Shown piece by piece: positions 27,441 to 64,000 of a DNA stretch of 64,000 bases. Below the pieces are notes generated by a model, which was not told the DNA's origin, did not search any database, and was given only the letters and a program-made list of their open reading frames with translations. The first letter of the stretch is position 1. Each line of letters begins with the position of its first letter. Position numbers and translations under genes: made by a program. Origin of the DNA: Escherichia coli (GTDB lineage Bacteria > Pseudomonadota > Gammaproteobacteria > Enterobacterales > Enterobacteriaceae); the NCBI RefSeq assembly GCF_022846255.1, contig NZ_AP025682.1. One strand, 5' to 3'.

Positions 27441-27466
27441 TGGGGGATTCTGTGCACGCTGTTCAT

Positions 27467-27668
27467 GCCGGATGCGGCGTGAACGCCTTATCCAGCCTAC
27501 AGGTGAGTGCTGTTTCGTAGGCATGATAAGACGCGCCTGCGTCGCATCTGGCATCGGCGCACAACTGCCAGATGCGGCGTAAACGCCTTATCCGGCCTAC
27601 ACAATCTTGCAAAATCAATATATTGCTCGATCCTCGTAGGCCTGATAAGCGAAGCGCATCAGGCAATC
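27467..27668. repeat. REP/BIME cluster
   Basis: Several gccggatgcggcgt(g/a)aacgccttatccggcctac-type palindromic units in alternating orientation. Confidence 0.8.
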
Positions 27669-27680
27669 TAACGCCTGTCA

Positions 27681-30095
27681 TCATCCCGCAAACTGCCTGA
27701 ACAGCGCCTTACCCTTAACCAGTCGCGCACCCAGCCAGCCGCCGCAAAGCGACAGCAGCAGCGCACCGCTGCACGGCAGAACAATCCACAATCGCCAGTC
27801 TGGCTCCCACGGGAAATCAAACACTTTCGATTGCAGTACCGCCAGTGCCGTTTCCGCACCAATTGCGGCCACCAGGCCAGAAACAAACCCGATCATGGCG
27901 AACTCACACCACAATGTCGTGCGCAGTAGTTTTTTCCCCGCACCGAGTGTGCGCCACACCACCAGCTCCTGATGACGCTGACGCATTCCCACCTGCACCT
28001 GTGCCAGCAACAGCAACATACCGCAGGCGGTGACCAGCACCACCATCACTTCCAGCGCCCGACTTACCTGCTCCAGCACCTGACCGACCTGTTTTAAAAT
28101 CGCGCCAATGTCTAACAGGCTAATGGTAGGGAACTGGCGGTTGAGTTGCGTCAACATGCCGTTGCCATTCTCCCAGCGGAAACTGGTAAGCCAGCTCTGC
28201 GGTTGCCCGTCTAATGCCCCTTCCGGGAAAATAAAATAGAAATTAGGCCGCAGACTTTCCCAGTCCACTTTGCGCAGGCTGGTCACTTTAGCGCGGAACT
28301 CCTGGGTATCGCCCATAAAGGTGACTGTATCGCCGAGGCCAACGTTTAAGCGTTTCGCCAGCCCCTCTTCCATCGACACTTCATCGGCTTTTGGCGGCCA
28401 GTTACCGGCGACAATCGGATTATGATCGGGCCGCGTATTTTGCCAGGTAAGATTGAGTTCGCGGTTAAGCGCCTCATCTTCATTGCCTTCTGTCGGCTTG
28501 TCGTTAATCGCCGTCAGTCGCGCCCGCACCACCGGATAAAATGATTCCGGGACTATCTGATGTTCCGCGAGGAACGTTTTTAGCGGCGTAACCTGTTCTG
28601 TGGCGATGTTGATTAAAAAGTAGTTCGGGCTTTCTGGCGGTAGCTGCTGTTGCCAGCGGTCGAGCAGATCGCCACGCAATACCAGCAACAGCGCCAGCAG
28701 CATAAAGGAGAGCGAAAATGCCGAAAGCTGGCTTAACGTTGACCACGGCTGACGTAACAGGCGGCTAACCGCCAGGCGCAGAGGTAGCGATTTCAGCGTC
28801 ATGCGGCGAAGTACATTCAGCAGCATCCAGCCCAGCACACCGCACAGCAAAGCCAGTACTACCGCGCCCGCCAGCACCGCCCAGAGCAGCATACTGCCGC
28901 CCATTAATCCGGCGAGCAGCAGCACAACCACCACACTGACAATCGGCAGATAAAACTTCAGCGGCCAGACGTTCGCGACCACATCATTACGCAATACGCG
29001 TAAAGGCTGCGTTGCCAGCAACAAGCGGTACGGTCGTAGCCCCACCAGCAGCGAGATGACCGTCATGGTGCCCAGCGCCCACAGCCACGGCCAGAGGCTG
29101 GCTGGCGGTAGTGCAGCAGGCAGAACGGGCTTGAGCAGCACCATCAACACGTTTTCGAACAACAGGCCTATCGCCCCACCGGTAACGGCTGAAAGCGTCA
29201 GCACCATCAACCACTGACCGACGATTAGCTTACGCAGTTGCGCTCGCCCTGCCCCCAGCGTTTTGAGGATCGCCACCAGATCGTAGCGACTGCGACAGTA
29301 ATGATTCATCGCTACCGCCACCGCTGCCACTGCCAGCAGCAAGGTCAGAAGCGCCGAAAGTAGCAGGAACTGTTGCGAACGTTCCATCGAGCGCCCCAGC
29401 GCGCCTTCGTCCTGTTCCAGACCGTACCAGCGTTGTTCGGGTTTAAGCTGGGGTAACAACCATTTCTCATAGCCGTCGAGCTGGTTCTCGTTGCCGCCGA
29501 ATTTATAGCGCCAGGTGACCCGACTTCCCGGCTGCACGGCTCCGGTTTTATCAACATCCGCCAGATTCATCATCAGGCGTGGGGCTATCTGGAAAGGATT
29601 AAAACCGGAATCCGGTTCCTGAATCACTTCTCCGGCAATCCGCAAGGTGGCATCGCCCACGTCAATGGTGTCGCCCGTTTTCAGGTTAAGCAGTGCCATC
29701 AGGCGTGGGGCCAGCAATACGCTGCCCGCCTGTGGTTTCAGGCCAGGGGGATTGGTTTGCAGATCGCCATACATCGGGTAGATATCATCCACCGCTTTGA
29801 CGTTCGCCAGTTGCGGCGTATCGCCCGCAAAAGTCATCGTGGCGAAAGTCAGCTGCTTGCCGACTTTCAGGCCGCGCTTTTGCGCTTCCTCCAGCCATGC
29901 TTGCGGCACTTCGCGCGAACTGCGCAACGCCCGATCGCCCGCCATAAACTCCCGGCTTTGCTGGCTTAAGCCCTTCTCCATGCGATCGCTGATGTTGCCC
30001 AGCGCCAGCACGCAGGCCACCGCCAGGCTTAGCGCCAGCCAGACAATTAACAGCGACGGCGAGCGCCATTCGCGCCAGAACCAACGTGCAATCAT
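27681..30095 (-). CDS. ybbP: ABC transporter permease (FtsX-like, two permease domains)
   Basis: 804 aa polytopic protein; start overlaps the ybbA stop (ATGA). Confidence 0.9.
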   Translation of the reverse strand: MIARWFWREWRSPSLLIVWLALSLAVACVLALGNISDRMEKGLSQQSREFMAGDRALRSSREVPQAWLEEAQKRGLKVGKQLTFATMTFAGDTPQLANVKAVDDIYPMYGDLQTNPPGLKPQAGSVLLAPRLMALLNLKTGDTIDVGDATLRIAGEVIQEPDSGFNPFQIAPRLMMNLADVDKTGAVQPGSRVTWRYKFGGNENQLDGYEKWLLPQLKPEQRWYGLEQDEGALGRSMERSQQFLLLSALLTLLLAVAAVAVAMNHYCRSRYDLVAILKTLGAGRAQLRKLIVGQWLMVLTLSAVTGGAIGLLFENVLMVLLKPVLPAALPPASLWPWLWALGTMTVISLLVGLRPYRLLLATQPLRVLRNDVVANVWPLKFYLPIVSVVVVLLLAGLMGGSMLLWAVLAGAVVLALLCGVLGWMLLNVLRRMTLKSLPLRLAVSRLLRQPWSTLSQLSAFSLSFMLLALLLVLRGDLLDRWQQQLPPESPNYFLINIATEQVTPLKTFLAEHQIVPESFYPVVRARLTAINDKPTEGNEDEALNRELNLTWQNTRPDHNPIVAGNWPPKADEVSMEEGLAKRLNVGLGDTVTFMGDTQEFRAKVTSLRKVDWESLRPNFYFIFPEGALDGQPQSWLTSFRWENGNGMLTQLNRQFPTISLLDIGAILKQVGQVLEQVSRALEVMVVLVTACGMLLLLAQVQVGMRQRHQELVVWRTLGAGKKLLRTTLWCEFAMIGFVSGLVAAIGAETALAVLQSKVFDFPWEPDWRLWIVLPCSGALLLSLCGGWLGARLVKGKALFRQFAG

Positions 30096-62367: not shown

Positions 62368-62529
62368 ATGTCACTGGAAAATGCCCCTGACGATGTCAAA
62401 CTGGCTGTCGATTTGATTGTGCTGCTGGAAGAAAATCAGATCCCAGCGCGCACCGTGCTGCGCGCGCTGGATATTGTAAAACGCGATTATGAAAAGAAAT
62501 TAACGCGCGATGATGAGGCGGAAAAGTGA
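62368..62529 (+). CDS. ybaM: Small protein YbaM (DUF2496), 53 aa
   Basis: ATG at 62368 with ggagag RBS gives [53 protein letters not shown]; below the ORF-track length cutoff. Confidence 0.75.
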
Positions 62530-62583
62530 AAAATAAATGGGGCCGCTAAATGTCCCCTAAGATTGCGGGCAAACGCAAAACTG

Positions 62584-62680
62584 CCTGATGCGCTACGCTT
62601 ATCAGGCCTACACCGCTCCTGCAATATATTGAATTCTTGCGGTTTCGTAGGCCGGATAAGGCGGTCACGCCGCATCCGGC
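62584..62680. repeat. REP element pair
   Basis: gcctgatgcgctacgcttatcaggcctac ... gtaggccggataaggcggtcacgccgcatccggc. Confidence 0.75.
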
Positions 62681-62740
62681 ATGAACAACGCGCACTTTGT
62701 CAGTAATCTCGGGGCAACTAAATGTCGCCCCCTTTGGTTA

Positions 62741-64000
62741 TTACCCAACCGCTGGTGTCGGATCGTCGCCTTTGTAGTCGCGTTTTACTTCCGTCACCTC
62801 ATCGCCCTTCTCGTTGTGCAGATGCACTTCAAGCTGGTTAAAGGCAATGTTGATGTCGTTTTCACGGCACAGCTGATCGATAGTACGGTTCAGCTCATCG
62901 ACAGTACGACTACGGTCACGCAGTTCACGCACATACAGACGCAGCTCATGATCCAACGTGCTGGCACCAAACGCCGTAAAGAAGACTTCCGGCATTGGTT
63001 CGTGCATCACCCTTGGGTGCTCAGTCGCCGCCTTCAGTAACACTTTACGCACTTTTTCCAGATCGGAGCCATAGGCCACGCCGAGACGGATCACCAGACG
63101 CGTAGTAGTGTCAGTCAACGACCAGTTGATTAGACGCTCGGTAACAAACGCTTTGTTCGGGATGATCACTTCTTTGCGATCGAAATCGGTAATCGTTGTC
63201 GCACGAATACGGATCTTACTTACCGTCCCCGAGAAGCTACCAATGGTTACCGTATCGCCAATGCGCACCGGACGTTCGAACAGAATGATCAAACCGGAGA
63301 CGAAGTTACCGAAAATTTCTTGTAAACCAAAACCAAGACCTACGGATAATGCTGCGGCCAGCCACTGGAGTTTATCCCAAGAGACGCCCAGCGATCCGAA
63401 CACCGTCATCGCACCAACGGCAATAATGATGTAGTTAAGGATGGTAGTAATGGCATACGACGCGCCCTGGCGCATATTCAGTCGCGAGAGCACCAGCACT
63501 TCCAGTAAACCAGGCAGGTTGCGAATCAACGCCCAGGCCACCATTGAGGCGATAATCGCAAACAACAGACTGCCCATGGTGACGTTTTTCACCACCGCAG
63601 CGCCAGCTTCAGTGCCGTTGTAATGCCAGAGCGTGATGCTGTCCAGATAGCTGAACACGGTGATCAAATCGGACCAAATTGCCCAGAACATGACACCGAA
63701 CAGCGCAAACATCAGCAACATGGTAATACGCAGCGTCTGCTGGTTAACCTGCTCCAGTGCAATGGTGGGTTCTTCCGGCGGTTCAGCACCTTCTGCGCCC
63801 TCTTTCACCAGATTCTGCCGACGCGCCAGCGCACGACGCCAGGCGATACGCCGCGCCGCTACGCTTAAGCCACGCAGTACTGTCTGGTACAGCAGGTTCC
63901 AGATGATCACCAAATAAACGGTTTCAATCCAACGCCCGGAGAGGCGCAGCGTGGTGTAGAAATAACCCGTGGCGGTCAGCACCATCAACGCAATCGGGAT
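62741..64000 (-). CDS. mscK: Mechanosensitive channel MscK (KefA), C-terminal part; 5' end beyond the window
   Basis: Translation contains the MscS-like channel domain; the frame continues open to the window edge. Confidence 0.9.
   Translation of the reverse strand: MPIALMVLTATGYFYTTLRLSGRWIETVYLVIIWNLLYQTVLRGLSVAARRIAWRRALARRQNLVKEGAEGAEPPEEPTIALEQVNQQTLRITMLLMFALFGVMFWAIWSDLITVFSYLDSITLWHYNGTEAGAAVVKNVTMGSLLFAIIASMVAWALIRNLPGLLEVLVLSRLNMRQGASYAITTILNYIIIAVGAMTVFGSLGVSWDKLQWLAAALSVGLGFGLQEIFGNFVSGLIILFERPVRIGDTVTIGSFSGTVSKIRIRATTITDFDRKEVIIPNKAFVTERLINWSLTDTTTRLVIRLGVAYGSDLEKVRKVLLKAATEHPRVMHEPMPEVFFTAFGASTLDHELRLYVRELRDRSRTVDELNRTIDQLCRENDINIAFNQLEVHLHNEKGDEVTEVKRDYKGDDPTPAVG

Follow-up and report, generated by a model that had tools for sequence, protein, structure and literature searches.

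A terminator-like hairpin repeated on both sides of a BIME-1 unit between rsmS and mscK of Escherichia coli: a probable target duplication

Organization of the rsmS-mscK spacer

The stretch of E. coli DNA analyzed here (the window, 64,000 nt) ends in the priC-rsmS(ybaM)/mscK region, in which rsmS, annotated as a pleiotropic regulator, and mscK are transcribed towards each other. The following features were delineated between and around their stop codons:

62368..62529, plus strand: rsmS (ybaM) coding sequence, 53 aa, stop TGA (from the ORF list and the annotation of matching E. coli records)
62530..62538: A-rich tract AAAATAAAT, left flank of the putative ancestral bidirectional terminator, matching AAAAAATAAA to the left of the hairpin of the empty allele; a U-tract if read in the direction of mscK (minus strand)
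62539..62557: direct repeat copy 1, GGGGCCGCTAAATGTCCCC, a decayed terminator hairpin with one base of the 3' arm lost
62558..62582: left terminus of the BIME-1, TAAGATTGCGGGCAAACGCAAAACT, 25 nt, its outer part an inverted repeat of the right terminus, with which it pairs in the RNA fold
62583..62611, plus strand: REP-Y, GCCTGATGCGCTACGCTTATCAGGCCTAC (pattern match; inverted repeat with the Z REP)
62612..62646: L linker, 35 nt, with the IHF-consensus-like site ATTCAATATATTG on the minus strand at 62622-62634 (12/13 to WATCAANNNNTTR)
62647..62681, plus strand: REP-Z1, GTAGGCCGGATAAGGCGGTCACGCCGCATCCGGCA, inverted relative to REP-Y (pattern and inverted repeats)
62682..62710: right terminus of the BIME-1, TGAACAACGCGCACTTTGTCAGTAATCTC, 29 nt, shared by every BIME-1 site that was sampled
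62711..62731: direct repeat copy 2, GGGGCAACTAAATGTCGCCCC, an intact terminator-type hairpin, whose 8-bp stem is perfect in K-12
62732..62740: T-rich tract CTTTGGTTA (CTTTCGTTTTT in K-12), right flank of the putative ancestral terminator, matching TTTATTGTCC in empty alleles; the U-tract for the plus-strand rsmS transcript
62741..64000, minus strand: 3' part of mscK, stop TAA at 62741-62743, convergent with rsmS (ORF list and annotation of matching records)

A sequence-only reading of the window had reported two similar motifs, at 62539-62557 and 62711-62731, bracketing a REP pair. Both were recovered exactly there as a real direct repeat, 172 bp apart: the repeat search returned 62539-62557 and 62711-62729 with 84% ungapped identity, and the use of one 1-nt indel gave 18 matching positions (GGGGC / CTAAATGTC / CCCC). 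Local alignment of the 60-nt outer flanks scored 23, a value attained by none of 2000 shuffles and by 11 of 3000 random 60-nt pairs with similar spacing from the same window; for 70 non-cognate pairs of flanks taken at other BIME-1 sites, the mean was 11.6 (sd 2.1, max 17). The statistics obtained within the window are above chance and only moderately strong; the repeat is considered solid because both copies and their loop orientation are kept across Escherichia lineages. An alternative in which the left module (copy 1 and its left flank) is an inverted copy of the right one is permitted by the stems and was rejected, since the identical orientation of the CTAAATG loop in all Escherichia lineages favors a direct rather than an inverted repeat.

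That the motifs bracket the REPs proved true; what they adjoin, however, are not the REPs but the 25-nt and 29-nt termini of a complete 153-bp BIME-1/RIP unit, which is more than a bare REP pair. The direct repeat adjoins the element immediately on either side: copy 1 runs up to 62557, next to the left terminus at 62558, and the last position of the element, 62710, is followed by copy 2 from 62711. The unit is extragenic, located between the stop codons of the convergent genes, and has the composition of a BIME-1, i.e., one Y and one Z1 REP, inverted, in a single unit. Both REPs have GTAG/CTAC feet, the inverted repeat that they form is 93% complementary, and the whole unit was predicted to fold as one long RNA hairpin built from the two inverted REPs. 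Rfam gave only sub-threshold REP-like matches here, to the REP-derived naRNA4. The outer parts of the two termini (roughly 15-17 nt) are mutually inverted, with AGATTGC.G.CAAA at one end and TTTG.CAG.AATCT at the other. The linker site at 62622-62634 is, by its consensus match, a putative IHF-like site; the same L linker is present at other BIME-1 loci, and an IHF site is a frequent feature of the L linkers of BIME-1 (PMC3333891).

The limits of the element were traced through the genomic distribution of its flanks. Of the 5,426 complete E. coli genomes, 4,059 contain the left module, each at one place, and as it does not recur, the possibility that the hairpin is itself part of the element was rejected. 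The right flank is repetitive (median of 4 places per E. coli genome), and three of its other places (cueO-gcd, entD-fepA, and tcdA-mltA) hold the same kind of unit with the same ends, the left terminus being truncated at tcdA-mltA. The left-terminus type adjoins REP-Y also at cueO-gcd, entD-fepA, yqjG-yqjF, uvrB-yvcK, and fdhE. Because the same flanks are found at other loci, they are best described as the termini of the 153-bp BIME-1 (RIP/RIB); for the same reason, the idea that the inner flanks (62558-62582 and 62682-62710) are target sequence or the ends of an unknown MITE was dismissed.

In E. coli F2_407_2_2, a copy of the IS110-family element IS621 lies inside the REP-Y of this BIME-1 (locus positions 1195-2510, corresponding to 62583-62611 of the window), with the junctions ...TTATCAGGCCT / IS / ...CT ACACCGC, and the BIME-1 is therefore also an IS621 target in some strains.

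Filled and empty alleles in E. coli and related genera

The filled allele is carried by about 75% of the 5,426 complete E. coli genomes, and the remaining roughly 25% include a sampled class that is 170 bp shorter; megablast of the region retrieved 3,880 genomes at full length together with this shorter class. In O157:H7, MS6198, and M7424, the whole block is missing and exactly one hairpin is left, AAAAAATAAA-GGGCGGCATCACTGTCGCCC-TTTATTGT (hairpin sequence AAAAAATAAAGGGCGGCATCACTGTCGCCCTTTATTG), bordered by an A-tract to the left and a T-tract to the right. Its folding energies on the two strands are -21 and -16.9 kcal/mol (z = -6.5 and -4.6), so that a stable G+C-rich hairpin followed by a U-tract, as is characteristic of intrinsic terminators, was found on both strands, and folding predicts it to be a strong bidirectional intrinsic-terminator-like structure between the convergent genes. 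The filled allele has the A-tract to the left of copy 1 and the T-tract to the right of copy 2, which is the footprint expected when a hairpin is duplicated around an insertion.

The hairpin of the empty allele is identical to neither copy (its loop is TCAC vs. TAAAT in the filled copies), and the two alleles further differ over roughly the last 45 nt of rsmS, the gene measuring 165 nt in the empty and 162 nt in the filled allele. These differences mark the empty allele as a haplotype that diverged long ago and does not itself represent the sequence before insertion; it could be either ancestral or introgressed. A synthetic junction query detected no precise-excision product of the filled haplotype in 5,424 E. 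coli genomes.

In one empty-type allele (GCA_030013345.1, locus positions 565-965), an IS200-like element with a Y1 transposase (Pfam Y1_Tnp) was found in the A-tract beside the hairpin position, at the junction between GAGTAAAATAAA and TATCCTCCGGCATAGCCGGAGG, and represents a second hairpin-associated mobile element at the same spot.

In order to cover other species, RsmS was scanned for in one genome per species, which returned 80 loci (E. fergusonii was not among them). E. albertii, E. whittamii, and two further Escherichia lineages are all filled and have both copies with the same loop orientation, copy 2 of E. whittamii being a perfect GGGGCGGC-TAAAT-GCCGCCCC hairpin; both hairpin copies and both BIME-1 termini are also kept in a genome labelled E. 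coli E69, which is a separate species representative. The insertion of the BIME-1 at rsmS-mscK appears to predate the split of E. coli and E. albertii. Outside Escherichia the spacer is highly variable, with other REP pairs, BoxC-like repeats, or an rpn (YhgA-like) gene in some genera. A single GGGGCGGC...GCCGCCCC hairpin follows directly after the mscK stop codon in Raoultella, Trabulsiella, and Klebsiella spallanzanii, and the presence of one hairpin at this position in several outgroup genera makes it the likely older state.

The sequence-only reading had named a comparison of this spacer between strains with and without the REP pair as a check, and had held that both copies persisting unchanged in strains that lack the pair, or motifs without any conservation, would refute its interpretation. 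The sampled strains without the REP pair have one hairpin instead of two and the motifs are conserved across the genus Escherichia, an outcome that favors this interpretation.

Several rearrangements of the same spacer were noted in passing. In E69, the REP-Y/L/REP-Z core is replaced (about 1610-1900 of the locus) by a G/C-rich BoxC-like palindrome of roughly 150 bp (CCCCTCGCCC...GGGGTGAGGG...CCCCTCACCC). A gene of the rpn type (YhgA-like, MERLPTTPHDAVFRQMLTQKEVARDFLQIHLP...) lies between rsmS and mscK at loci from Citrobacter, Salmonella arizonae, the Klebsiella oxytoca group, and Trabulsiella, and remnants of it were seen in Citrobacter sp. FP75, Trabulsiella guamensis, and K. spallanzanii. 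At ten loci of Enterobacter and relatives, the rsmS frame enters BoxC-like repeats just past position 1630, and the C-termini of the Enterobacter-type RsmS vary through these repeats (...SPEGRG or ...PHPNPLPQGEGK); one of these loci (L087) has a unit of about 115 bp, composed of the rsmS 3' end and a BoxC-like repeat, duplicated in tandem.

Hairpin repeats at other BIME-1 sites

Metagenomic contigs were scanned with an exact pattern that joins the end of REP-Z1 to the right terminus and is blind to the outer flanks, and the contigs retrieved clustered into 8 genomic sites with this BIME-1 subfamily. Four of the 8 are bracketed by a locus-specific terminator-like hairpin repeat (4/10 with two sites added later); if rsmS-mscK is excluded, the footprint is present at 3/7 sites first sampled and at 3/9 with the two later additions. 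The repeat copies at the four sites are:

rsmS-mscK: left copy GGGGCCGCTAAATGTCCCC, right copy GGGGCAACTAAATGTCGCCCC
tcdA-mltA: left copy GGGCGAGGTTATCCCTCACCC, right copy GTGAGGTTACCCCTCACCC
yqjG-yqjF: left copy AACGAGGAGCGTTTCTCCTCGTTTT, right copy AACGAGGAGCTTCCCCCTCGTTTT
uvrB-yvcK (one allele type): left copy GCCGGAATGTTTTTCTGGTTT, right copy GCCGGAATGTTCTTCCGGTTT

The cognate flanks of these sites score 23-35, in comparison with a maximum of 17 for non-cognate ones, and the four repeated hairpins are all different (GGGGC..CTAAATG.., GGGTGAGG.., AACGAGGAG.., and GCCGGAATG..); as the sequence of the repeat varies by site, it comes from the target and not from the element. Natural empty alleles exist at all four sites, each with exactly one hairpin, which is nearly identical to the right-hand copy at yqjG-yqjF and tcdA-mltA and a diverged homologue at rsmS-mscK. 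The yqjG-yqjF site is filled in only 78 of 5,425 genomes, pointing to gain rather than loss. Two of the three repeat-bearing sites other than rsmS-mscK lie between tandem, not convergent, genes. At every repeat-bearing site, the duplicated stretch extends from stem foot to stem foot and includes a few tract bases, hence its length tracks the size of the palindrome and is variable (19-26 bp).

The flanking repeat is absent at 6 of the 10 sampled sites (cueO-gcd, entD-fepA, fdhE, and the L154 site among the 8, and, from outside that scan, the ybbP BIME at 27450-27690 of the window and yhjE-yhjG of MG1655), which means that the duplication is either not obligatory or decays. In the K-12-type allele of uvrB-yvcK, the left copy is reduced to about 5 nt. 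A relaxed search of 1.27 Mb of contigs, one random 50-kb stretch of MG1655, and a viral-contig scan yielded no new sites of the subfamily.

Two filled alleles of uvrB-yvcK, from MC1061 and from a metagenome contig, are about 86% identical over 584 bp, and the left hairpin copy measures about 5 nt in one filled allele and is full-length in the other, which suggests that one hairpin received independent insertions or that the left copy has decayed. The copy on the REP-Y side carries more changes than the one on the REP-Z1 side at all four repeat-bearing sites, by comparison with the empty allele for tcdA-mltA, yqjG-yqjF, and uvrB-yvcK and from the state of the hairpins for rsmS-mscK. The ybbP BIME is an atypical second BIME within the window (27450-27690, minus strand, downstream of an 804-aa ORF ending at 27681) without a flanking direct repeat, in which four REPs (Y-L-Z1 followed by Y-Z) lie between similar outer termini (GATGATGACAGGCGTTAGATT ... 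TGAACAGCGTGCAC) and which occupies the entire spacer of two convergent genes.

The probable target duplication, its alternatives, and possible consequences for termination

Defined element ends, a locus-specific hairpin duplication, and empty sites with one copy are together the signature of an insertion with target duplication. We consider it quite likely that the two motifs are the two copies of such a duplication, i.e., that the whole terminator hairpin was duplicated around the 153-bp BIME-1, apparently as the latter inserted between rsmS/ybaM and mscK. The sequence-only reading had offered two options, related terminator hairpins for ybaM and mscK or a duplicated target around an inserted REP unit, and these are parts of one answer. 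The second is supported by the one-hairpin empty alleles, the arrangement of the tracts, and the recurrence at three other loci. Concerning the first, the motifs are copies of one hairpin, but only copy 2 is still a good one (-13.3 kcal/mol on the plus and -17.7 on the minus strand here, -15.7 and -14.3 in K-12), while copy 1 (-6.7 and -6.9 kcal/mol, z of about -0.6 and -0.8) folds no better than shuffles; a simple assignment of one terminator to each gene does not hold, as the U-tract of each gene is now on the far side of the element.

The main rival is a duplication without transposition, in which a polymerase stalled at the terminator hairpin would have switched templates, copied a BIME-1 from elsewhere, and re-entered upstream, or in which gene conversion took place; the footprint would then be real, but no element-specific integrase would have set it. 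Palindromes stall replication and promote template switching, and both the variable length of the duplication (19-26 bp) and its absence from 6/10 sampled sites agree with such events. What makes this account rather improbable in our view is that the ends of the element are constant at independent sites, (TCTGA)TTGCTGACAAAC on the left and GTCAGCAATCT(GA) on the right, which fits defined, enzyme-made ends and is unexpected from template switches at microhomologies, and that no sequence from the flanks of a donor was carried along.

Two separately maintained terminators, one for rsmS and one for mscK, could also resemble each other through a shared functional constraint or because of an ancient local duplication that had nothing to do with the BIME. 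In favor of this are the convergence of the genes, the stability of the copy 2 hairpin, and the AUUUAUUUUU that follows copy 1 on the minus strand, yet each hairpin is distal to the gene whose U-tract it carries, the fold of copy 1 is indistinguishable from that of shuffles, and an identical CTAAATG loop is unnecessary for termination. Moreover, one hairpin suffices in empty alleles and in other genera, and the same bracketing is seen at three unrelated BIME-1 sites, two of them between tandem genes, all of which renders separate terminators very unlikely. Chance similarity between two motifs with G/C ends and an A/T center is the least credible option, with hardly any probability left to it. 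It could draw on the random pairs within the window, 11 of 3000 of which reach the score, and on the 64 kb that had been scanned in the sequence-only reading; the shuffles never reached 23, though, non-cognate pairs stopped at 17, both copies are conserved across Escherichia species, and the repeat sits precisely at the ends of an element that is polymorphic for its insertion, so that the comparative data effectively refute chance similarity.

For the target duplication, the following course of events can be proposed. The ancestor would have had one bidirectional intrinsic terminator between the convergent rsmS and mscK, consisting of an A-tract, a GGGGCGGC-TAAAT-GCCGCCCC-like hairpin, and a T-tract. 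The 153-bp BIME-1, with its terminal inverted repeats, REP-Y, L linker with the IHF-like site, and REP-Z1, would have come between two copies of the whole hairpin, the A-tract remaining with the left and the T-tract with the right copy. The joints may have been made at the two feet of the folded target palindrome (as a cruciform, or as hairpins in single-stranded DNA), which are near in space and a palindrome length apart in the duplex; repair would then duplicate the whole hairpin, and joints placed in this manner would explain why the duplication length tracks hairpin size. The enzyme may be the REP-associated Y1 transposase, cutting between C and T near REPs, and a CT dinucleotide is indeed found at or beside most junctions of the sampled BIME-1 sites. 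TnpA_REP cleaves single-stranded DNA between C and T near REPs (PMC3333891), its locus is in the yafL-fhiA region (PMC3333891), outside the window, and Y1 (IS200/IS605) elements are known to transpose without duplicating their target (PMC3333891, PMC2817692), so that a duplication of hairpin length requires an additional step or another geometry. As a general rule, we put forward only tentatively, at somewhat less than even confidence, that BIME-1/REPIN units insert in a structure-directed manner at the feet of folded terminator palindromes and duplicate the entire hairpin (19-26 bp), the repeats of about 20 bp making the insertion scarlessly reversible.

Several known systems share part of this footprint. 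Like MITEs and classical IS, the rsmS-mscK unit is small and non-coding and has inverted-repeat ends, a locus-specific direct repeat, and clean empty sites, but their duplications have a fixed length of 2-14 bp, whereas that of BIME-1 has the size of the palindrome and is far from being present at nearly all copies (4/10 sites). The unit resembles REPINs in having two inverted REPs in one long hairpin. REP hairpins are recognized substrates in the IS200/IS605 and RAYT (TnpA_REP) systems, and the CT that TnpA_REP requires for cleavage occurs at or near most BIME-1 junctions; the single-strand 'peel and paste' of IS200/IS605, however, leaves no target duplication, unlike the BIME-1 footprint. 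Spacer integration by Cas1-Cas2 duplicates the palindromic CRISPR repeat through staggered attacks on its ends, assisted by IHF in E. coli. The likeness (insertion between two copies of a palindromic unit of roughly 20-30 bp, with joints at both palindrome borders) is an analogy only, as rsmS-mscK has no cas genes, leader, or array, and the terminator that is duplicated around BIME-1 changes from locus to locus. Precise excision of Tn10/Tn5 proceeds by slipped mispairing between the target duplications and is stimulated by inverted repeats. For this, rsmS-mscK offers a classic substrate, with direct repeats of about 20 bp, spaced by 172 bp, on both sides of a long palindrome; a single terminator would again be left after excision, a product absent in the 5,424 E. 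coli genomes.

Among the non-coding repeats of E. coli, REPs and BIMEs are the most abundant. For BIME-1, the composition, the IHF site, the location at 3' ends, and the presence or absence in strains were already known (PMC3333891, PMC1187871), the last from Bachellier 1997 as cited in PMC1187871. The rsmS-mscK unit has the composition of the reported BIME-1/RIP/RIB, and its presence/absence ratio of about 75%/25% matches the reported polymorphism, but the BIME-1/RIP/RIB descriptions searched contain neither inverted-repeat termini of 15-17 nt outside the REPs nor a flanking target duplication. A review states that REPs lack MITE signatures (PMC3184786), and the way in which REPs/BIMEs spread to new sites is still called unknown (PMC3333891; bioRxiv 10.64898/2026.03.23.713779). 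No description of inverted-repeat termini with hairpin-length target duplications for BIME-1 was found in the literature searched, which did not reach Bachellier et al. 1997. This Genetics paper reportedly sequenced BIME-1 'excisions', and if older literature already records the hairpin-duplication footprint, the present finding is a well-documented example of it.

At a single locus, this is a tidy, explainable footprint; its recurrence at independent sites bears on the mobility of REPs/BIMEs and is moderately interesting. Defined ends, a duplicated terminator hairpin, and one-hairpin empty alleles provide a testable handle on BIME insertion; the footprint predicts a preferred target (terminator palindromes), a joint geometry (the two stem feet), and a route of scarless loss. 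If true, structure-directed insertion would be a first sequence-level constraint on a mechanism that has been open for 40 years, and it would explain why BIME-1 are found at the 3' ends of transcription units and are gained and lost cleanly from strain to strain.

The insertion would also affect termination at the present-day locus, as it splits a bidirectional terminator and each convergent gene now reads through a REP pair with an IHF-like site before its U-tract. On the plus strand, copy 2 forms a good hairpin followed by CUUUGGUUAUU (the tail is CUUUCGUUUUU in K-12), which was not called by the consensus terminator scan; on the minus strand, copy 2 lacks a U-tract and copy 1 has one behind a weak hairpin. 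The rsmS transcript would therefore cross the BIME and then end at copy 2 and the T-tract (U-rich tail). The mscK transcript would meet copy 2, without a U-tract, just past its stop codon, its old U-tract now following the decayed copy 1, and for ending and protection it would have to rely on the REPs, on Rho, or on the decayed copy 1 with this U-tract; REPs have a known role in the protection of 3' ends and in aiding Rho-dependent termination (PMC6061677). As a result of the split terminator, strains with the filled and the empty allele may differ in 3'-end formation and mRNA stability of rsmS and mscK.
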